DNA from: a virus
DNA: 64,000 nt
Reading direction: 5' to 3' (one strand)
Virus record (IMG/VR): IMGVR_UViG_3300031975_001631
The notes beneath the pieces are model-generated. The model saw nothing but the letters and a program-made list of their open reading frames with translations, had not been told where the DNA came from and ran no database searches. This document shows, one piece after another, positions 1 to 49,118 of the stretch. Made by a program: the position numbers and the translations under genes. Numbering within the stretch: position 1 is the first letter of the stretch; each line of letters opens with the position of its first letter.

Positions 1-680
1 TCTTTTTCTTTTTTCTTCTTAGTATCAATGATTGCTTTATCGCCATACTTAGCACGGATCTTTGCTTTCACAACATCCATGGCAGAAGGTCCATCAGAAG
101 AACGCTTCTTCTTACCAAATGTATTTGGTTTGCCAGGTGCTTTATTGTAACGGTTGTTGCCGTCAACACCACCACGCTCCATGCGACGATCTCTTAGAGA
201 ATCTTCGGTTTCCTCAACATTCAATGTCTTAGGATAATCCTTATCACCCTTCTTAGCAGGCTTTTCGCCACGCTTACGCTTAGCATGGATGTTTGCCCAG
301 AGTCCTTTCTTCTCTTCTTGAATATCAGGATTAATAGTTACTTTATTTTTTACAGACTTCTCTGAAATTTCTACTTCTTTTTCGTCTGAGGTCGTAGCTT
401 TCTCAGACTTATAAAGCTTTTTTTCGGTTAATTCCGCTACTCTCTCACGGAGAGATAATTCAACCTGCTCTTTCTTTACTCTCTGTGCCTTATCAGCAGC
501 AATAGCAGCACCGACAGACTTACGACGGTTTCTTAAATAAGAATCAGACTTAGTATTCTTCTTACCATCATTGTCAATATCATCATCTTCCATACCTACA
601 GGATCAAGTTTTTCCATAAAAACATTTGCCATGCTATTAAGCATGATCTGATCGGCTGTATCTTCAATAAAATTTTTCAT
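1..680 (-). CDS. Modular Lys/Glu-rich hypothetical protein, 3' end beyond the window edge
   Basis: Not in the ORF track; translated by hand from ATG at 680 (MKNFIEDTADQ...KLDPVGMEDDDIDNDGKKNTKSDSYLRNRRK...GLWANIHAKRKRGEKPAKKGDKDYPKT...), open to base 1. Perfect late promoter just upstream. Confidence 0.85.
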   Translation of the reverse strand, partial: MKNFIEDTADQIMLNSMANVFMEKLDPVGMEDDDIDNDGKKNTKSDSYLRNRRKSVGAAIAADKAQRVKKEQVELSLRERVAELTEKKLYKSEKATTSDEKEVEISEKSVKNKVTINPDIQEEKKGLWANIHAKRKRGEKPAKKGDKDYPKTLNVEETEDSLRDRRMERGGVDGNNRYNKAPGKPNTFGKKKRSSDGPSAMDVVKAKIRAKYGDKAIIDTKKKKEK

Positions 681-704: not shown

Positions 705-1901
705 CTATCTTTTATTTATAAAGGACTTAACTTTTTCCAATGGAGTAAGTCTCTGTACATACTCTCGATAAGAATCTGTTCCAACTTCTCTCTTATTTGC
801 AGGAACTCCAGAAGGAATTCTAGAAACATATTCAGTCAAATCTCTAATCCAAGATTTGAACATAATACCCTCAGATGTAACTGCAATAACATGATTTGCA
901 CCGCGTCTAATAATCCTACCAACAAGTCCGGTATTTAAAGATTCTACAAGAGATCCCAGATCAAACATATTGCCAATAATGTAATGCTCTCTCAAAGTTT
1001 TTTCATCAAACTTAGGAGCAATTTGCCACATCTCTACGCCCTCTGTTACAGCTGCAGCACCCATAGATCTCTGTACTGTATTGAATAGTTCTCTTGCAAC
1101 CATTCCTTTAGCAGACTTGGGTAATCCTTTCTTGAAAGACTCAAAGTCACCATCAGCAGCTAAGGCTCGTAATTTGGAAGCAGACATACCCTCAACCCCT
1201 TCAGCATCGGGATCCCGTTCTCCTGCAGAGATGACATTAATCGCATCAAAATTATAGAGTTGCCCGTTGTATTTGTTCGCGAGCCCCTCAAACTCTTTTT
1301 GTCTGTCAGCACCAACCACGATGTTGACGCTACTATATCCTTCGACATCGGCTTGCTTCAGTGCGTCTAGTATGGTACGAATGCCAGGATCATATATGAT
1401 CGCATTCGCATGTGCAGGAAACATCTTCTTCATAAAGAGAACTTTAGTCTCAGAATCAAGAGGATTTTTCTGTGGATCTACTGAGTGGGATGGGTATATC
1501 ATATAGGACCCACCCTCTGCAGTATCTTTAATAGTATCAAGTAATTTTTCGTGACCTGCTGTAGGGGGATTAAATCTACCAAACCCAATAGTAACAGTAC
1601 CGCGAGTCTTTTCTACCTCTTCCTGCTCTTCTGGTTCACCAACTCCACCACTTTGTGGTGCTGAAGGAGGAGGATTTTCTGGAGGTAAAGCTCTTGCTGC
1701 CCGTCCAGGTTTTGTTGGATCAGTTTCTTGTGATGGTTTTCTACCACTAGAAAAAACCAACTCACCTTCTATGGTTCTACCAACAATTTTTCCAGCTGGA
1801 TCAACCCATGACCCATGGCCATCACCCTTCAAACCAAGCTTCTTTGCTTGCTTTGCAGCGTTTGTCTGCGCCTCATTTAAGAATTGAAAGAAATTCTTCA
1901 T
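705..1901 (-). CDS. HIGH-motif nucleotidyltransferase (cyanophage 'cytidylyltransferase') with CTS-like leader and extra C-terminal module
   Basis: FGRFNPPTAGHEKLL (HxGH), VVGADR and MSASKLR motifs; N-terminus MKNFFQFLNE. Confidence 0.85.
   Translation of the reverse strand: MKNFFQFLNEAQTNAAKQAKKLGLKGDGHGSWVDPAGKIVGRTIEGELVFSSGRKPSQETDPTKPGRAARALPPENPPPSAPQSGGVGEPEEQEEVEKTRGTVTIGFGRFNPPTAGHEKLLDTIKDTAEGGSYMIYPSHSVDPQKNPLDSETKVLFMKKMFPAHANAIIYDPGIRTILDALKQADVEGYSSVNIVVGADRQKEFEGLANKYNGQLYNFDAINVISAGERDPDAEGVEGMSASKLRALAADGDFESFKKGLPKSAKGMVARELFNTVQRSMGAAAVTEGVEMWQIAPKFDEKTLREHYIIGNMFDLGSLVESLNTGLVGRIIRRGANHVIAVTSEGIMFKSWIRDLTEYVSRIPSGVPANKREVGTDSYREYVQRLTPLEKVKSFINKR
713..720 (-). promoter_or_regulatory. 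T4-type late promoter TATAAATA
   Basis: Exact T4 gp55 consensus, 33 nt upstream of the ATG at 680, followed by AGGAG. Confidence 0.8.
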
Positions 1902-1903
1902 TA

Positions 1904-2509
1904 CTACGAAAAAACCCGTCGAGTAGACTCCGCAATTCTATTTATGTTAAAGGATATAGTTATACGAAGCTTTTTACTGTTATTCTTTTTAACAAAATGT
2001 CTCAAATGAGATGGGAATAAAATAATATCACCCTCCTCAACCTTAGGGGTATGATTCTCACATAGGTGCTGATTAATATTTCCATCCAGAAACTCATCAT
2101 CAAACATAAAAGAATGTATAGAGTCCTGTGGATTTTGGAATGTAGTAGCTACATGATCTTCTGGATCAAATACTAGATAATGAATCCCAGAAAAAAATCC
2201 AGGTAGATGAGAATGAGACTCTTGAAATTGAGATTTCTCATAAGCGTTCATCCAAATCTCATCAATATATGGACGATCAAATAGTCCAAATTCATCCCTC
2301 CATTCTCTTAGGGCATCATCATAATGCTGCTTAATCTCTTGAGGGAAAGCTCCTTGAAATTCTGTTCTAACATCACAACTCCATCCTTCTGGAGTTCCAT
2401 TTATTGAATGATCTTTCCAAGATACATACCTATCCAACATATTTTGTCTTAGATCAGGTGCCTGTAAATTGTATTTGAATATTCGAGTTGGAAATAAATC
2501 AGTGTACAT
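1904..2509 (-). CDS. 2OG-Fe(II) oxygenase (TIGR02466-like)
   Basis: HSH...SGIHY...EEGDIILFPSHLRHFV...RITISFNI. Confidence 0.8.
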   Translation of the reverse strand: MYTDLFPTRIFKYNLQAPDLRQNMLDRYVSWKDHSINGTPEGWSCDVRTEFQGAFPQEIKQHYDDALREWRDEFGLFDRPYIDEIWMNAYEKSQFQESHSHLPGFFSGIHYLVFDPEDHVATTFQNPQDSIHSFMFDDEFLDGNINQHLCENHTPKVEEGDIILFPSHLRHFVKKNNSKKLRITISFNINRIAESTRRVFS

Positions 2510-3844
2510 TTAACCAAAAATAATGTTTCGTGCGTTTCCAAAGTCACCCTTAAGTAAGGATTTAAATTGGGGTGAAAGAAATGCTTGGAACTGAGGTTGA
2601 GATTTAAAGTCACCTTTATATCTTAACTCAAGTTCTAAGAGATCTAGTGTACCTGCCCTAACTTTGAAAAATAACTTAGCCGCATTTGAGGACTCTGTTT
2701 TTGCAGTATCTATATCAATAGTCTTAGGTTGTCTTCTAAGATAAGCAAGAGCAAGTGCAACGCTATCAATACCAATACAAGTACCACTACCTTCCTGAAT
2801 ATTCATACCATTAGACTTAGATATTGTAACCTGCCCTACCCCAGTGGTCAAGATAAATTCAAAGTTATTTCTAGTATACTCACTCATCTCATCCATCAAT
2901 TGTTTCTTAAGAATAAGATTGATTAGGGTATCAGCAAACAACTGCTGATTTCTTTTAATAATACTTAGGAATTGTTTATATAATGTGTTGGGTTGATTTC
3001 CAACTTTGCCAAGCCTCATGTTTACATAATCACGCATCGCATTAGTTGTTTTGGTATCAACCTCTCTAGTATTCAAAAGAGCTGGATCACCAATAGCAGA
3101 TACATCTTTTAGATTAATTAAAGGAACTGTTTGAATCTTACCATTTTTATAGATACCAATCCTAGTACTCCAAAGTTTTTCCGGTGGAGCATTTCTAGGA
3201 TTAGATCCATCAGGAAGTTGAGCAAGTCCAACCAAAGGACCAGTAGTTAATGCATCCCTAATTACTCCAGCAAAAAACTGCTGTCGTGCTTGCTGTAACT
3301 GTGCCTTGATAGGAGCAAATTGAGATCCATTCAATACAGTATCAAATGCTTTATTGATTAGAGTCGGGTCCGGTGCAGTTCCTTTTGGTTTCTTTTTCAG
3401 AGATACCCCAACATAATTAGCTCCATACTGAAGAATCAAATCAGAAGAGTTAAAGTCTGCCATACCAAAAGCAGCAAACTTAAATTGCTGAACTTCTTGA
3501 GGCCATTGAGTTCCTGTCAGGTATACTGCATTGGGTATTGCATTCCCAGATATACCTTTCATTGCAGAATTTTTAGCAAGAAAAGATCTGACTGCTTTTA
3601 CTGCAGAGATACCTACAATAAGATCAGAATAAAACTTATCTTTTTTTGTTGATGGGGTTAAGGTTACAGCTTTCTCAAAATCTTTTTTTACATTCCCAGC
3701 ACCAATAACAGCGGGACCCATATACCTCTGATACATGAGGTTGTAAAAGTTTTGAAGACTTGTCTCATCTTTGACAGCAGCATCCATTTCTTGATTGTTG
3801 CATAACGCACAACCAGCAAAAAATCCTTCAGACGGTTCAGCCAT
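2510..3844 (-). CDS. Hypothetical protein, possible PD-(D/E)XK nuclease fold
   Basis: 444-aa ORF; SSDLILQYGANYVGVSLKKK resembles the D...SLK core variant. Confidence 0.55.
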   Translation of the reverse strand: MAEPSEGFFAGCALCNNQEMDAAVKDETSLQNFYNLMYQRYMGPAVIGAGNVKKDFEKAVTLTPSTKKDKFYSDLIVGISAVKAVRSFLAKNSAMKGISGNAIPNAVYLTGTQWPQEVQQFKFAAFGMADFNSSDLILQYGANYVGVSLKKKPKGTAPDPTLINKAFDTVLNGSQFAPIKAQLQQARQQFFAGVIRDALTTGPLVGLAQLPDGSNPRNAPPEKLWSTRIGIYKNGKIQTVPLINLKDVSAIGDPALLNTREVDTKTTNAMRDYVNMRLGKVGNQPNTLYKQFLSIIKRNQQLFADTLINLILKKQLMDEMSEYTRNNFEFILTTGVGQVTISKSNGMNIQEGSGTCIGIDSVALALAYLRRQPKTIDIDTAKTESSNAAKLFFKVRAGTLDLLELELRYKGDFKSQPQFQAFLSPQFKSLLKGDFGNARNIIFG

Positions 3845-32325: not shown

Positions 32326-33771
32326 TCACATGAGGTTCTTAACAACAGTACGCTGGTAGTAGCGGTTGCTGTTAGAGGTGATACGACCCAAACCTTGAGT
32401 GGTGCCTTCAGCGTAAGGGTTGGAGACAAGACCATAACGGGTCTTGAAGCCAATTTTGGGCTGGAAGCTGTTCTCACCAACGGCGCGAACCATCTGGAGG
32501 GGAACATAAGGACAGTAGAAGAGACCAGCATCATAAGGGCTAGTACCCTTATAACCAACAACATAGTACTGGTTAGCGGCAGAGTTAGCAGCGAAGGGGT
32601 CGATGTAGACTCTGTACTTACCGTTGATAGTACCAGCGAAGGTGTTGCCGGTGTCGTCAACCTGAAGGTTAGCGTTAAGAGCAGGGGTGTAATCAAGTAC
32701 ACCAGCCATCGTCAGAGCGGAAGCAACATCAGCAGATGTCATGATGATGTTACCCTTCCCTCTACGAGTTCTTTGGGCGATTCTGTTAGCATCTCTTTCG
32801 ATGTTAAACAGAAGACCTTTGAACTTCTCAACTGACCAACGACCGTTGGAGTCAACATCGAGGTCAAAGAAACCAGCGTTGGCAACATTTGCCTGTGAAC
32901 CAGCTTCAGCAGTCTTATAGATGGTACGAATAACTTCGCGGTTGATTTCAGCAAGGATTTCGCTAGACAGGATGTTAGCGAGTTCTGCTTCAGCGTTAAG
33001 ACCGTGGATAGCACGAAGGTCTTGTGCCAATTCCATGCTGTACTCTGCTTTCAGAGCACGGGACTTAGCGGTGACCGTGACTTTCTCGATCGAGAATGCC
33101 ATCTCGTTGAAATCGCCATTGCTGCCGTCTCCGAGTGCCTCAGAGTCGCCAGTTGCCATACCTTGACCCAGTGAATACTGAGCTTGTACAGCGTCGGAAG
33201 CAGTGCCTTCCAGGATAGCGGGGTTAGTACCACGCTGAGTACCAGTAGAACCGAAACCAACGGTGCCGTCGTCATCGGTAGCAGCGGTGTAATCACCTTG
33301 GGTTGCTTGACCGATGTTGGTGCCTGCCTTGTTCGCAGAGAATGCGGAATCGGGCTCGTCGAAGAACGACTCAGTACCAGCTTGATTGGTGTAGCGTGAA
33401 CGCATTGCGAAGATCAGTCCGGTAGGACCGTTCATCGGCTGAACGCCAGCGAGTTCATAAGCAACCAGATTCGGCATCGAGCGGCGAATCAGGCTGATCA
33501 GAACGGGATCGAAACCGGCGGTAGGACCAGCAGCAGCAGAACCGCCACTGAAAGCACCAGAAGCACCTACAGCGTTGCCGCTGTTAGTAGGAGCAGCTTC
33601 TGAGAGCATACCGTTGCCGCTTTCAAAAGCAGATTGCTCTTTGAGGAAACGCTCTTGGTTCTCAAGGAGAACAGCAGTTGTAGCACGGCGATGTGAGTCC
33701 TTAATAGGATCAACTCCATCGGCGTCGAGAAGTGGACCCCACTTCTCCATTAATGATTCTTGATTGTACAT
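32326..33771 (-). CDS. gp23: Major capsid protein gp23
   Basis: FDPVLISLIRRSMP, GVQPMNGPTGLIFAMR, FYCPYVPL; putative cleavage at MLSE/A. Confidence 0.99.
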   Translation of the reverse strand: MYNQESLMEKWGPLLDADGVDPIKDSHRRATTAVLLENQERFLKEQSAFESGNGMLSEAAPTNSGNAVGASGAFSGGSAAAGPTAGFDPVLISLIRRSMPNLVAYELAGVQPMNGPTGLIFAMRSRYTNQAGTESFFDEPDSAFSANKAGTNIGQATQGDYTAATDDDGTVGFGSTGTQRGTNPAILEGTASDAVQAQYSLGQGMATGDSEALGDGSNGDFNEMAFSIEKVTVTAKSRALKAEYSMELAQDLRAIHGLNAEAELANILSSEILAEINREVIRTIYKTAEAGSQANVANAGFFDLDVDSNGRWSVEKFKGLLFNIERDANRIAQRTRRGKGNIIMTSADVASALTMAGVLDYTPALNANLQVDDTGNTFAGTINGKYRVYIDPFAANSAANQYYVVGYKGTSPYDAGLFYCPYVPLQMVRAVGENSFQPKIGFKTRYGLVSNPYAEGTTQGLGRITSNSNRYYQRTVVKNLM

Positions 33772-33801: not shown

Positions 33802-34848
33802 TTACTTCATCCCAAGGGCTTTCAAGTACTGGGTCATTGAAGCAGATGCCTCAACACCAGTCTCTGAGGTTACGCCCTCAGAAAGTGTTTCCACTTTGTT
33901 AGAAGAAAGTTTTTGCTCACTGGGGAAATAAGATTCCTTCAGTGTAACCAGCTTCTCACGATAAGATTCTTCACCCTCAAACTCAACACCTTCAGACAAT
34001 GCGACTAATTTCTCTCTTTGTGTTACAGCAAGACCCTCGGTTACTTCACGGAAAATTCCATCAGCTGTAGATTCGCCAAGGCGCTTGTTAAGAGAAATGT
34101 TAGCTTCGATCTGTTCGTTAAGTCTGCCTTCCATTTCATCAAGTTTGGAGACCATACTCTCCAGGACATCGTATTTGTCGTCAGCAATTGTTACATAATG
34201 ATCTTCAAATAGACCCTTCATTCCAGAAAGGAATGATTCAGTCATTTCGGTCTTAAGACCGTGCTCTACTTCGATCTTGTTCTCGGAGATCCACTCTTCT
34301 GAAACATACTCAAGGTATGCATCAACGCGCTCTACAAGTTCAGACTTTACAGTCTCAAGATGTTCAGTAAGTTGCTCTTCGTATTGTGCAGCCATCTCTT
34401 CTTGGACTTCAGTTACTTTAGCAGTAACTACAGCCTCAAAGATTGTGCGAGCTTTTAATTGAAATTCTTCGGAAAGTTCTTCGCCACCAAAAAGGGCAGA
34501 AAGATCTTCTTCGATATCAACAGAAGGAGTTACCTCCTCTTGCGTGGTCTCATCTTCAGCTACAACTTCTTGCTCGCCTTCTGCTTCGACGGTATCGCCA
34601 GCAGAAAGACTTTGCATCGGTTCAGCAGCTTTAGCGCCACGATTTACGACATCTTTGACAGTTTTAACTTTGGGTTCTGCGAGTTTCGCGGAATCATCGT
34701 CGGCTTTGTAGTTCTCGGGGGTAGGCCCACCAAGATCTTGAACAGCAGCCAAACCAGTTCCAGGATCAGAAAGCTTAGGCATAGCCTCAGCTCCTTTCGC
34801 ACCCCTTGTTACGGGATTTTCCATTTCTTGTAATTCCTTAGCGGACAT
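33802..34848 (-). CDS. gp22: Prohead core scaffold gp22
   Basis: Acidic coiled coil, VDAYLEYVSEEW, between gp21 and gp23. Confidence 0.93.
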   Translation of the reverse strand: MSAKELQEMENPVTRGAKGAEAMPKLSDPGTGLAAVQDLGGPTPENYKADDDSAKLAEPKVKTVKDVVNRGAKAAEPMQSLSAGDTVEAEGEQEVVAEDETTQEEVTPSVDIEEDLSALFGGEELSEEFQLKARTIFEAVVTAKVTEVQEEMAAQYEEQLTEHLETVKSELVERVDAYLEYVSEEWISENKIEVEHGLKTEMTESFLSGMKGLFEDHYVTIADDKYDVLESMVSKLDEMEGRLNEQIEANISLNKRLGESTADGIFREVTEGLAVTQREKLVALSEGVEFEGEESYREKLVTLKESYFPSEQKLSSNKVETLSEGVTSETGVEASASMTQYLKALGMK

Positions 34849-34899: not shown

Positions 34900-35550
34900 T
34901 TAGAGACTTGACAGGAAATTATTGAACAGTGCCAACTTGTTTTCTTCAAGTGCTTTTTGATCGACCAAGGTATTAATTTGCTTGTAGGTCTTCTCTACAA
35001 GCCTTTCTCTGACGATTCCACCATCCATTACCCAGTCTTTTCCTTCCATAATTCCTGATACAAATGCATCAGGTGCGGATGGATCTGCTACAATATCTGC
35101 AGCAGTTGCAAGCATAAAATCGTTTGAGACGACTTTAATACCATTCTCATTTACCGCTAAAGTTCCAAGTCCACGGGAAGAAACACCCAACTTTACACCT
35201 TCATCGATAAGATTTTGTGCGATCTTACCCATGGGGGTATTGAGAATTTTAGCTTTACCTATAAAATTAGTTCCCTCTTCTCTGAGAGATGTAATTTTAT
35301 GAGATACTCGATCCAGGTTGAGAGTAGGTCCTTCGGGATGACCGAGTTCACCAAGAGCTCTGCCTTTGCTGACAAAACTTTCGTTGTAACGACATACTTC
35401 TCTGCGAAGAGTATCCATAGGATACATCCGACCATTTCGGTTCTGAATGTCTCCCTGAAGGAATACTCCTTCGATGAACATAGATTTCTTACCGTTGCGT
35501 TCTTCAACGATAAGTTCGACCTGTTCGATTTCTTCCGTGATCAGTTTCAT
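34900..35550 (-). CDS. gp21: Prohead protease gp21
   Basis: NRNGRMY, GELGHP, GVSSRGLG, DIVADPSAPDAFV. Confidence 0.97.
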   Translation of the reverse strand: MKLITEEIEQVELIVEERNGKKSMFIEGVFLQGDIQNRNGRMYPMDTLRREVCRYNESFVSKGRALGELGHPEGPTLNLDRVSHKITSLREEGTNFIGKAKILNTPMGKIAQNLIDEGVKLGVSSRGLGTLAVNENGIKVVSNDFMLATAADIVADPSAPDAFVSGIMEGKDWVMDGGIVRERLVEKTYKQINTLVDQKALEENKLALFNNFLSSL

Positions 35551-46648: not shown

Positions 46649-47926
46649 TTACCTTTGTTCAATCCAGTTTAATACTGCGAGTGCTTTCTTGTTAGTATTA
46701 GGTGAAGCACATGCTAAAGTGTATATATCACTTATCGTTCCAATACCAGTTCTACCGATTTGTAGTGCTGCCTTATCATCAACTTCTACAAGAGAAGAAC
46801 CACCAGAAATCGTAAATCCACTCAGGACAATATTTCCACCAGCTGTAGCAGTAGCACTTGTGTCGTATTGCATAAAGGAGTTTGGATTTGAACCATCTGT
46901 CCAATTTGCACCAGTTAATGTTGGGTTCTCAATCAATCTCCAATAGACATTAGTATTATCATTCGTTACTGCTTGTAGAGATCTAATCAGAGCAACAGCA
47001 CCCAATTGATCCTCTTTTAATCTGAGACTTACGACTGGATAAAATGTATTTGCAGCTGCCAGTGTAGTGCCAGTAATAGGATTAGCAATACTTTCAAGAA
47101 TACCAAGTTTCTCTGGTTCACCTTCTTGAATTAGAGAGTTAGATCCTTGATACAGGTAATGAGTTCCAGCAACACCAGTTATATTTTCAATCTCAACACG
47201 AATGGGAAGGAACGGAGTGGAACACCAAACAGTATCCAAAGTATTTGAGTTCTCAAATGTATGAGACGGAATTGTCTCATTTTTCATTAACCATGCAAAC
47301 TCTACAAGACCAGCACCATACCACTCATAGTTGATGGAAATCATCTGCTGTTTTGTTGGATCAGCAGTTACACCACTATATCCATTACCATCAAACTTCT
47401 CACCGTTCCAATCGTCTCTGTATACTCTTCTTTCAGTAACAATACCTGTCGTATTACTACGAATTACATAAGCATAAGTTCCACCATTATCCTCAAAATA
47501 AGCACCATTATTATCATCAAACAATCCAAACCTTCTACGAATACCGACTTGTGGAGTATCAAGACGAATTGAAAAGGCAAGAGTAGCACTTCTACCAGGA
47601 ATGTATCTCATTACATTCTTAGTCTGACGAACTACACTACTACCAGCAGCAGAACCAACTTCCATTACTACATTACTGGATGATGCATTAAAGGTAGCAG
47701 TTGCACCGACTCCGACTAATCTTTCATCCCATACATCAGTTTCTTTGCCGTACTGGAAGGTATTGAAGAAGACTGTTTGATATGGAGAAACCTTTAATCT
47801 ATTGTTATTAGAAAACTGAGGTCTCCAATCTGTCTGGTTTCCCCAGTGATCAGCAATATTATATACTTCAAAAAGGGTTCTTTCTTGATTGAGAAAGTCC
47901 TGTGTATTCTTATTCCACTGTGCCAT
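46649..47926 (-). CDS. Beta-rich hypothetical protein, probably virion-associated
   Basis: 425 aa in the late block. Confidence 0.75.
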   Translation of the reverse strand: MAQWNKNTQDFLNQERTLFEVYNIADHWGNQTDWRPQFSNNNRLKVSPYQTVFFNTFQYGKETDVWDERLVGVGATATFNASSSNVVMEVGSAAGSSVVRQTKNVMRYIPGRSATLAFSIRLDTPQVGIRRRFGLFDDNNGAYFEDNGGTYAYVIRSNTTGIVTERRVYRDDWNGEKFDGNGYSGVTADPTKQQMISINYEWYGAGLVEFAWLMKNETIPSHTFENSNTLDTVWCSTPFLPIRVEIENITGVAGTHYLYQGSNSLIQEGEPEKLGILESIANPITGTTLAAANTFYPVVSLRLKEDQLGAVALIRSLQAVTNDNTNVYWRLIENPTLTGANWTDGSNPNSFMQYDTSATATAGGNIVLSGFTISGGSSLVEVDDKAALQIGRTGIGTISDIYTLACASPNTNKKALAVLNWIEQR

Positions 47927-47928
47927 GA

Positions 47929-48237
47929 TTAATCTTCAACCCATGATTGCATAGCTGGGTTAAATCTTTTTTTATTAACGACAGTAATGTCAGATTTTTC
48001 TTCAGAAACTGGATATATTTTCTGGACCATAGCTCCAGGATATTCCTTTTGTAACTGTTCGGATAATTCTTTTTCTGTTGGAAGAGAATCTCTAACAGTA
48101 GATAAATCCATACGATAGAGCTTACCTTCCCAAACTACATCAGCACCGAACTCTTCATTTTTGGGAGTCTCAATATCATCAGTATCAATAGTAATTGTAA
48201 TTTTGCTTTCCGACAAAAATTCTTTAAAGTTTTTCAT
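47929..48237 (-). CDS. Hypothetical protein with CTS-like leader
   Basis: Starts MKNFKEFLSE/S. Confidence 0.8.
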   Translation of the reverse strand: MKNFKEFLSESKITITIDTDDIETPKNEEFGADVVWEGKLYRMDLSTVRDSLPTEKELSEQLQKEYPGAMVQKIYPVSEEKSDITVVNKKRFNPAMQSWVED

Positions 48238-49118
48238 TAGTTACAGTCCCAAGCTCTAAGTGATTTGTTGATTCTGCTATCAGGATCTCTTGCTGTCTCA
48301 GCAGAAGTGAGTTTTTTCTTCATGCCTTTCATCCTTGCACAGAATGATGCTCTTCTCTTATTACCCTTCACTTTAGATGGTCGTTTTAAGTTATGTCCAT
48401 CTGCTTTGGCAGACTTTCGTCCCTTCTCATTGAGTCCACCCTCAGGATTCTGTCCTTCTTTGCGAGTCCATGCAGCACCTTCCTCTACTTTCTTAGAGAT
48501 ATTTTTAATAGCAAATGTGTCCCAATAGTCGGGACCATAAGCACACTCTTCTCTAGCTTCCATCTTCTCACACTTAGGACAGAATCTCATATCTGTCTCT
48601 TCAATTAACTTACCTTCTGGCTCGACAGATTGATTGAGCATTTGATTGGTCATCTTATCAATCCTCATCTTTCTATCACCAAGTTTGCCAGCAAGTCCTT
48701 GATTTCCAGTGGGACCCTTAACTTGTTTCTTAGCAAGTGGGTTTTTAATATCTAGATTGGGGTGACCAATATATCCGTCTCCAGGTTTGCCGCCAACAAC
48801 TTCACCAATCATATCACCTTCTGGTTGATAACCAGCCATTTGTGTTGATGGTTTCTTTTGAGCTAAAGGAGGAAGTTGTGCTCCAGATTTCTTTAAGAAC
48901 GCATCCTTCTCATTAGGATTAGTTGTGCTCTTTCCTTTATTATAAATCTTAGTACCTTTCATCGCTCCACGATGTCCAGGACCAATAGTAAAACTTCCCT
49001 CTGTAATTTTTACAGAAGAGTCATCAACTTTAGGAGATTCAAAATCTCCTGTAGTTGACGGTTTCTTCTTCTTTGATTCTGATAGGAAACTAGAAATATC
49101 GGAATATGACAGTGCCAT
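48237..49118 (-). CDS. Modular basic protein with DUF6321-like C-terminal module
   Basis: AWTRKEGQNPEGGLNEKGR...RRASFCARMKGMKKKLTS...SLRAWDC; late promoter at about 49149-49155. Confidence 0.8.
   Translation of the reverse strand: MALSYSDISSFLSESKKKKPSTTGDFESPKVDDSSVKITEGSFTIGPGHRGAMKGTKIYNKGKSTTNPNEKDAFLKKSGAQLPPLAQKKPSTQMAGYQPEGDMIGEVVGGKPGDGYIGHPNLDIKNPLAKKQVKGPTGNQGLAGKLGDRKMRIDKMTNQMLNQSVEPEGKLIEETDMRFCPKCEKMEAREECAYGPDYWDTFAIKNISKKVEEGAAWTRKEGQNPEGGLNEKGRKSAKADGHNLKRPSKVKGNKRRASFCARMKGMKKKLTSAETARDPDSRINKSLRAWDCN

Follow-up and report, generated by a model that had tools for sequence, protein, structure and literature searches.

A probable T4-type capsid-targeting leader on the HIGH-motif nucleotidyltransferase of T4-like cyanophages

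Here we report the analysis of a 64,000-nt stretch of viral DNA (hereafter the window) from the IMG/VR record IMGVR_UViG_3300031975_001631, itself a 92-kb fragment that is ~48% complete, and of one of its genes, at positions 705..1901 on the minus strand, whose 398-aa product begins with a decapeptide resembling the capsid-targeting sequence (CTS) of phage T4 internal proteins. The window is part of a T4-like cyanomyovirus, with homologues of gp43, gp41 and uvsX and a head and tail block that comprises gp20, gp67-like, gp68-like, gp21, gp22, gp23, gp18, gp19 and gp17 genes. The open reading frame (ORF) is translated from the earliest start codon possible in its frame, and its start follows the stop codon of a 2OG-Fe(II) oxygenase gene after 2 nt. 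It represents the 'cytidylyltransferase' of the cyanomyovirus core family T4-GC190 (PHROG 395): the PHROG 395 'cytidyltransferase' profile matches the protein along its full length at E 8e-98, the replication genes gp43, gp41 and uvsX lie upstream, and the oxygenase gene is found beside or near it. Full-length orthologues with 40-55% identity occur in hundreds of Synechococcus and Prochlorococcus myoviruses, where they are labelled as the T4-GC190 core gene, as 'cytitidyltransferase', as nicotinamide mononucleotide adenylyltransferase ('NMNAT') or as 'NadR-like'; the orthologue of phage RB11-B (PV261925.1, 73202-74389) is labelled 'tail fiber protein', probably as a result of virion detection or annotation transfer. 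The sequence features listed in an initial annotation of this locus are all present on the minus strand.

Residues 1-10 of the protein, MKNFFQFLNE (1872..1901, minus strand), constitute the CTS-like leader, which is followed by Ala11 and has a candidate site for cleavage by the gp21 prohead protease after Glu10 (LNE/A). In the translated T4 record, the internal proteins IPIII and IPII both start with MKTYQEFIAE followed by Ala. Amber-suppression work on the T4 CTS assigned residues 4 and 7 to targeting and residues 8 and 10 to processing, and an Asp at position 10 was found to block cleavage while targeting was kept (PMC9026906). At these mapped positions the cyanophage leader has F4, F7, L8 and E10, and then A11, where T4 has Y4 and F7 as its two aromatic residues. 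The 398-aa protein therefore carries aromatic residues at both targeting positions of its true N-terminus, as well as a gp21-type site made of L/I at position 8, Glu at position 10 and a small residue next to it. The resemblance of MKNFFQFLNE/A and its Glu10 to the T4 CTS, to which the initial annotation drew attention, thus extends to the residues with mapped functions.

The same residues are conserved across the family. The 120 closest homologues keep M1, K2, F4, F7, L/I8 and E10, with variation at positions 3, 5, 6 and 9 (MK[SN]F..F[LI].E); conservation of MKxFxxFxxE in orthologues, on which the initial annotation had staked its proposal, is thereby borne out. An exhaustive profile-free homologue search returned 4261 clusters, and in the best 150 representatives, in which leader forms were scored, 108 carry a leader with either 10 residues (74/150) or 9 residues (34/150), many of the other representatives being fragments or near misses. 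Among family representatives the information content of the leader is highest at positions 2, 4, 7, 8 and 10, and in an alignment of 100 sequences the P3 residue is L or I in 76 of 89 and the P1 residue is Glu in 76 of 90. Only two ORFs of the 92-kb contig have the leader at their start. Judged from these sequences, the occurrence of the leader is far above chance. The leader also appears to be separate from the enzyme fold, because the homologue from jumbo phage RaK2, which is not T4-like, lacks the leader and begins at strand 1, and because the catalytic domain of the 398-aa protein is set apart from the leader by ~90 residues in the AlphaFold2 model. The Cr30 homologue has an unrelated N-terminal extension in place of the leader. 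Identification of the decapeptide as a T4-type capsid-targeting sequence is well supported by these sequence comparisons.

A gp21-type protease and a gp22 scaffold are encoded in the same phage genome. The gp21 prohead protease, the presumed processing enzyme, is encoded at 34900..35550 (minus strand; PHROG 207, E 4.5e-82) and matches the T4 gp21 structure 5JBL at E 8.6e-21; the gp22 scaffold gene lies at 33802-34848 (PHROG 237), and the gene of the major capsid protein gp23 at 32326-33771. The latter protein carries the sequence M-L-S-E58/A59, in which a cut is expected after L-S-E58 (33598..33606, minus strand) and before Ala59, and this presumed maturation site, assigned by analogy with T4, is of the same type as LNE10/A. 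Both the gp21 gene and the gp23 MLSE/A site had been noted initially, and both were recovered here, together with gp22.

Late expression along with the head genes fits the sequence upstream of the enzyme gene, where a T4-late-promoter-like ATAAATA (1939..1945, minus strand) is located 44 nt upstream of the start codon. In the window, 27 copies of the motif [AC]TAAATA lie on the coding (minus) strand vs one on the other strand, and 13 of the 27 are found 16-50 nt upstream of gene starts, vs 0.83 expected. The genes preceded by these start-proximal copies include gp18, gp20, gp22, the leader-bearing operon at 49118, the enzyme gene and both its neighbours. The exact T4 late promoter, TATAAATA, was considered as the signal and rejected, as its 2 copies in the window are no excess over chance and it is the looser motif that carries the signal. 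The strand bias of [AC]TAAATA probably traces a late regulon, to which genes that do not look structural also belong. A published field transcriptome study gives no expression class for the enzyme gene.

The leader is also found on other proteins. A search with its DNA pattern gave 5 matches in four cyanophage genomes vs 0 for the reversed control, with additional matches at the S-CRM01 GNAT acetyltransferase and a small P-SSM2 protein; a small S-SCSM1 protein is headed by the leader as well. The second leader-bearing ORF of the window (47929..48237, minus strand), located in the structural gene block, encodes a 102-aa protein of PHROG 1742 that starts with MKNFKEFLSE/S. In a scan of IMG/VR with a Glu6 variant of the pattern, for which all figures are counts among the matches listed, 102 of 122 matches fall at true ORF starts with ORFs of >=40 aa, and these true-start leaders precede at least ~59 cargo groups by a crude grouping. 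The free positions of the IMG/VR leaders give the consensus MK[TS]F[KQ]EF[IL]xE[AS], which is near-identical to that of T4, and homologues of the T4-like core genes of the window are present on 66 of 120 short leader loci. From these sequences, the leader behaves as a portable tag on otherwise unrelated proteins, mostly in T4-like contigs.

The cargo behind these leaders is varied. The 102-aa protein is encoded between a late-promoter-headed gene and a gene resembling that of the cyanophage core virion protein T4-GC15 (46649-47926), and its leader-bearing relatives recur at six IMG/VR loci (L111, L024, L029, L047, L036 and L050). The adjacent 293-aa protein (48237-49118, minus strand), with CTAAATA 36 nt upstream of its gene, has the 14-residue N-terminus MALSYSDISSFLSE/S, with the same FLSE/S ending as its neighbour's leader, and matches to eight different PHROGs within its C-terminal 90 aa give it a modular head-cargo look. 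Elsewhere in IMG/VR, the leader is attached straight to the HIGH domain (L088 and L091), or stands before a DUF6267-like KYDG protein (L128), ADP-ribosyltransferase-looking cargo with YHGT/GxYxT motifs (L051, L093, L030 and L095), a Cys-rich 67-aa family (L062, L065, L087 and L098) and several large families of small basic proteins (among loci L012-L131). In the freshwater cyanophage S-CRM01, g185 (L003/L006; record positions 139045-139440) is a GNAT acetyltransferase by weak Pfam matches that starts with MKTFDEFLTE/G, and it is the second enzyme found to carry the leader.

Orthologues of the enzyme have been detected in purified cyanophage particles. In S-SM1 virions, T4-GC190 was represented by 25 peptide counts, vs 18 for the portal and 22 for the scaffold, and the neighbouring products T4-GC1453, 1454 and 1455 were detected too (Sullivan et al. 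2010, Table S8); the S-SM1 protein has the leader, as MKKFSAFLNE/A. In S-SCSM1, ORF91 ('NMNAT'), whose N-terminus is MKSFLQFLKE/A, and four flanking genes are annotated as encoding virion proteins. ORF154 of S-CREM2 was detected in virions with 3 unique peptides; it is as long as S-CRM01 g127, which starts with MKLFNQFFKE/A. The detected orthologues whose leader was read are those of S-SM1 and S-SCSM1. S-PM2p139, in which the C-terminal half of DUF6267 is fused to the enzyme, has no leader, and this leaderless version was undetected in a shallow study of S-PM2 virions. The S-CREM1 proteome, with 14 proteins only, is uninformative on the enzyme. Carriage of the enzyme in the virion and its entry into the host were proposed before, in the papers on S-SM1, S-SCSM1, S-CBWM1 and S-CREM2 (PMC3037559, PMC9602691, PMC10665884), which offer no packaging mechanism and make no mention of the leader or of gp21. 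A full-text literature search found no paper linking capsid targeting with cyanophage or Synechococcus. Virion association is therefore already published, and the explanation by targeting appears to be unpublished.

The modular structure of the protein was examined with an AlphaFold2 model built on 100 homologues (mean predicted local distance difference test, pLDDT, of 85.9) and a separate model of the C-terminal part (pLDDT 82.5). The leader is modelled as a helix with pLDDT ~81. It is followed by a small basic module (residues 11-55; 1737..1871, minus strand) of one helix and three strands, with an isoelectric point (pI) of 10, pLDDT >90 and the motif GLxGDGHGxWxDxxGxxVxxTxxGELxF. S-CRM01 encodes this module on its own, in g128, an ORF that lies upstream of the enzyme gene (53% identity over 45 aa, E 1e-14) and has a related ..SFIKE/A stretch close to its N-terminus. 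Residues 1-60 as a query had no match among proteins of >697 aa, a negative that the method makes weak, and residues 1-58 retrieved from the ESM Atlas just unnamed viral clusters, all under the informative score. The acidic Pro/Glu-rich disordered linker that comes next (residues 56-99; 1605..1736, minus strand; pLDDT 43-57) is missing from most family members. The Rossmann-like HIGH-motif nucleotidyltransferase domain occupies residues 100-282 (1056..1604, minus strand), with the TAGH motif at residues 114-117 (1551-1562, minus strand) and SASKLR at residues 240-245 (1167-1184, minus strand). A short linker (residues 283-289; 1035..1055, minus strand; pLDDT <50 at 283-288) contains VTE287/G and leads to a helix and a five-stranded SH3-like barrel predicted at residues 290-357 (831..1034, minus strand), which ends in LTE357. 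The basic tail (residues 358-398; 708..830, minus strand; pI 10.1) has the motif GTDxYRxYxQxxTP, kept among cyanophage orthologues, with the tail length and the other sequence being variable. The nucleotidyltransferase domain, the SH3-like barrel and the low-confidence Pro/Glu-rich linker are thus all visible by structure prediction, which the initial annotation had suggested as a check. Two further matches of the SH3-like domain, PHROG 4808 ('ribonucleotide reductase alpha subunit') and the 91-aa protein S-PM2p141 (labelled NrdB), bear names that look like annotation errors originating from a small stand-alone copy of the domain.

The predicted SH3-like barrel is flanked by two potential gp21 sites, VTE/G (285-287/288) and LTE/Y (355-357/358), and the initial annotation had described protease sites around the domains of the enzyme. 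Its positional part holds for LTE357, whose column reads [LIVM]xE in 27 of the 48 sequences aligned and, among cyanophage-type orthologues, in ~23 of 26. The remainder of that claim is weak, since the 398 aa contain 9 [LIVAFM]xE sites, four of them (L/I)xE, vs ~11 expected by our own composition-based estimate, and at VTE287 the Glu is semi-conserved while P3 is not hydrophobic in most orthologues. Conservation of LTE357 may be structural, as this residue ends a beta-strand in the model. A C-terminal cut after LTE357 is possible because gp21 shortens T4 Alt from both ends (PMC9026906), and by that analogy we treat Glu357 as a lead only for a site that gp21 may use.

Profile and fold comparisons assign the enzyme domain to a superfamily. 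The domain has ~30 nearly invariant residues and combines (H/T)xGH and ISSTxxR-type motifs with a Rossmann-like fold. The 398-aa protein scores 18.9 bits against the Pfam family PF01467 (CTP_transf_like), with a gathering cut-off of 21, which is exceeded by its clear homologues P0216, P0267 and S-PM2p139 at 24-30 bits. The NMNAT equivalog TIGR00482 gives 12.8 bits vs a cut-off of 112.45, a threshold that is far from reached. The family profile matches MJ0951 in the PDB at E 0.0019, with both motifs aligned, the archaeal NMNAT MJ0541 at E 0.58, and phosphopantetheine adenylyltransferase (PPAT) at E 0.76; in the fold comparison NMNAT and PPAT tie. The likeness to NMNAT and PPAT proposed in the initial annotation therefore stands for the motifs and the fold, and fails at the curated NMNAT threshold. 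By sequence and model, the protein is a member of the HIGH-motif nucleotidyltransferase superfamily, with a substrate that is unreadable from sequence or fold. It probably transfers a nucleotide from a nucleoside triphosphate to a phosphorylated small molecule, yielding a nucleoside diphosphate-linked product and pyrophosphate, and NMN and 4'-phosphopantetheine are the leading candidate substrates.

In other phages the enzyme domain is fused to DUF6267 (PF19782), to a Pol-beta-type nucleotidyltransferase, to PAP2 or to DUF5824. DUF6267 corresponds to T4-GC71, the gene directly upstream of the enzyme in S-SM1 and S-PM2, and S-CRM01 has a Pol-beta-like gene two genes downstream of the enzyme. 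By sequence, these fusion and neighbour partners are unlike those of canonical NAD or coenzyme A (CoA) enzymes. Comparison of DUF6267, whose KxDG motif may be ligase-like, with PDB sequences yielded nothing useful. Neither DUF6267 nor DUF5824 turned up in the 92-kb contig, a negative that carries no weight because the control genomes gave no match either and the contig is ~48% complete. In S-PM2 (L002, 1255-3034), DUF6267 is divided between S-PM2p138, with the N-terminal half, and S-PM2p139, in which the C-terminal half is joined to the cytidylyltransferase domain; this arrangement is a split gene or else a DUF6267-enzyme fusion broken by a frameshift. Metagenomes contain an unbroken DUF6267-enzyme-DUF5824 fusion (P0267).

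The downstream neighbour of the enzyme gene (3-680, minus strand), cut by the contig end and with an exact TATAAATA 39 nt upstream, has piecewise matches to 13 PHROGs. Its product shares a 38-aa DPVGxEDxDxDNDG..YLxNRRK module with the virion protein S-SCSM1_92 (74% identity), the same motif is present in S-SM1_191, and its PGKPNTFG motif also occurs in the tails of some cytidylyltransferase orthologues. Homology of the upstream neighbour (2510-3844, 444 aa) to the equally long virion protein S-SCSM1_90 was considered and dropped, as BLASTP gives no similarity (E 3.7), and the product of 2510-3844 has no similarity to DUF6267.

From the sequence evidence and the T4 analogy, we consider it likely that the protein is a modular head-cargo enzyme, targeted by its leader, processed by gp21 and delivered with the DNA. 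The enzyme gene would be transcribed late along with the head genes, and the leader would bring the product into the prohead scaffolding core. There gp21 would remove the leader by a cut behind Glu10, so that the mature protein starts at Ala11, with a possible further cut after Glu357. The resulting ~42-kDa enzyme would be kept in the DNA-filled head, exit with the DNA and be active in the new host before phage gene expression. The elements of this scheme differ in their standing. Sequence comparison and the published proteomics of orthologues give good support to a packaged nucleotidyltransferase with a T4-type targeting leader; that the leader does the targeting, that the protein is cleaved and ejected, and what it catalyses are what we infer. 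Accordingly, the initial proposal that the enzyme is packaged, matured and delivered at infection finds support as regards packaging, from the orthologues in purified virions, and its parts on cleavage at Ala11 and delivery stay with the T4 precedent.

Several observations weigh against this scheme. The P1' residue is Leu in 15 of 70 anchored leaders (about a tenth of representatives), which is not a usual P1' residue of T4 gp21. In most family members Glu10 is only 9-10 residues ahead of the FGRFNPP motif, so that a structural N-terminal helix is possible. A shallow study of Syn9 virions found no peptides of the enzyme, and the small leader-bearing protein ORF30 of S-SCSM1 is absent from the list of virion proteins although both its neighbours are listed. 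Finally, the authors of the S-SCSM1 and S-CREM2 proteomes themselves cautioned that an abundant soluble enzyme may co-purify with virions.

This last caveat speaks for one alternative, an ordinary cytoplasmic auxiliary metabolic enzyme of the NMNAT-like NAD/CoA kind that is abundant late in infection and co-purifies with particles, its N-terminus serving translation initiation or stability. The small number of unique peptides from S-CREM2 ORF154, the Syn9 result and a fold of the small-molecule adenylyltransferase type are all compatible with it. We nevertheless regard it as unlikely, as the N-terminus agrees with the T4 CTS at four functionally mapped positions, the leader recurs on the unrelated cargo groups described above, and an effect on translation start would not preserve the aromatic residues 4 and 7, L/I8 and E10. 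Moreover, the enzyme has been detected in at least three independent phages, with the 25 peptide counts of S-SM1 among them, and in S-SM1 and S-SCSM1 adjacent genes likewise encode virion proteins. Alternatively, the leader may send the enzyme into the prohead only for it to work or be degraded there, in the manner of T4 gp22, gp67 and gp68, with no effector being delivered. Most T4 core proteins with a CTS or propeptide do end as small peptides, VTE287 and LTE357 provide further candidate sites, and the basic modules at its ends look like the small ones shuffled among head-cargo genes nearby. This fate appears improbable for a protein that persists in the finished particle, as the many peptides from mature S-SM1 virions indicate, and whose folded domain, with its near-invariant residues, is ill-suited as scaffold filler; moreover, the nearest precedents, the T4 internal proteins and Alt, are ejected (PMC3012670). 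A third reading makes the decapeptide a helix with a structural or regulatory task, such as capping, oligomerisation or membrane anchoring, whose likeness to the T4 CTS is convergent. This reading would agree with the helical model of the leader and its closeness to strand 1 in most of the family, and is very improbable given the leaderless RaK2 and Cr30 homologues, the ~90 residues that part leader from domain here and the occurrence of the leader on unrelated proteins that lack a nucleotidyltransferase domain.

A speculative extension, which we hold to be rather doubtful, is that the enzyme serves not NAD or CoA housekeeping but acts as an injected time-zero effector. Its substrate would then be non-canonical, for instance the end of an RNA or DNA molecule, or an immune signal derived from a nucleotide (or the precursor of such a signal), which it would nucleotidylate in partnership with the DUF6267, Pol-beta-type, PAP2 and DUF5824 proteins that are fused or adjacent to it in other phages. 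On this speculative reading, the leader would define an 'injected proteome', readable from sequence, that spans dozens of families of enzymes and small proteins in T4-like phages of the ocean. Several laboratories have met this enzyme in purified cyanophage particles and left undecided whether it is cargo or contamination, and a T4-type tag offers a testable mechanism. The leader also gives a rule by which packaged, and probably injected, proteins of abundant ocean viruses could be read from sequence only. Proteins delivered together with the DNA act before phage gene expression and are prime candidates for host takeover or counter-defence, and a packaged nucleotidyltransferase would be an unusual member of this class.

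The closest known systems are the T4 internal proteins IPII and IPIII (and also IPI), whose CTS is processed by gp21 (Mullaney and Black 1996; reviewed in PMC9026906 and PMC3012670). Like IPII and IPIII, the cyanophage enzyme begins with a ten-residue leader of the form M-K-x-aromatic-x-x-F-[I/L]-x-E, with Ala next to it; its genome encodes homologues of the T4 prohead protease and scaffold, the leader is likewise placed on unrelated cargo, the genomic context is probably that of a late gene, and the cargo (for cyanophages, in the form of orthologues) is found in virions. The cargo itself differs, being a 42-kDa multi-domain enzyme in the cyanophage and a small DNA-associated protein in T4; in addition, the cyanophage leader is followed by a conserved basic module and a long acidic linker, and a second conserved candidate site is located near the C-terminus. 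T4 Alt is a packaged ADP-ribosyltransferase that is injected and acts before phage gene expression. Alt and the cyanophage enzyme are alike as head-carried enzymes, with gp21 trimming and injection established for Alt and proposed for the cyanophage protein, but they differ in fold and chemistry, and the Alt propeptide is not a decapeptide of the IPII/IPIII type. The virion enzymes of S-SM1, S-SCSM1 and S-CREM2 belong to the same gene family, those of S-SM1 and S-SCSM1 with 40-50% identity and the same synteny, while the virion-associated enzyme of S-CBWM1 is counted solely on a statement in PMC9602691. The name 'NMNAT' given to these cyanophage virion enzymes rests on weak similarity. With PPAT (CoaD) and the NMN and nicotinic acid mononucleotide adenylyltransferases (NadD, NadM and archaeal NMNAT), the phage enzyme shares the Rossmann-like fold, the T/HxGH motif (here TAGH) and an ISSTxxR-like motif (here SASKLR), but its identity to these enzymes is 11-19% only, it has extra N- and C-terminal modules, and its family's fusions to DUF6267, Pol-beta, PAP2 and DUF5824 are foreign to the canonical NAD and CoA enzymes.

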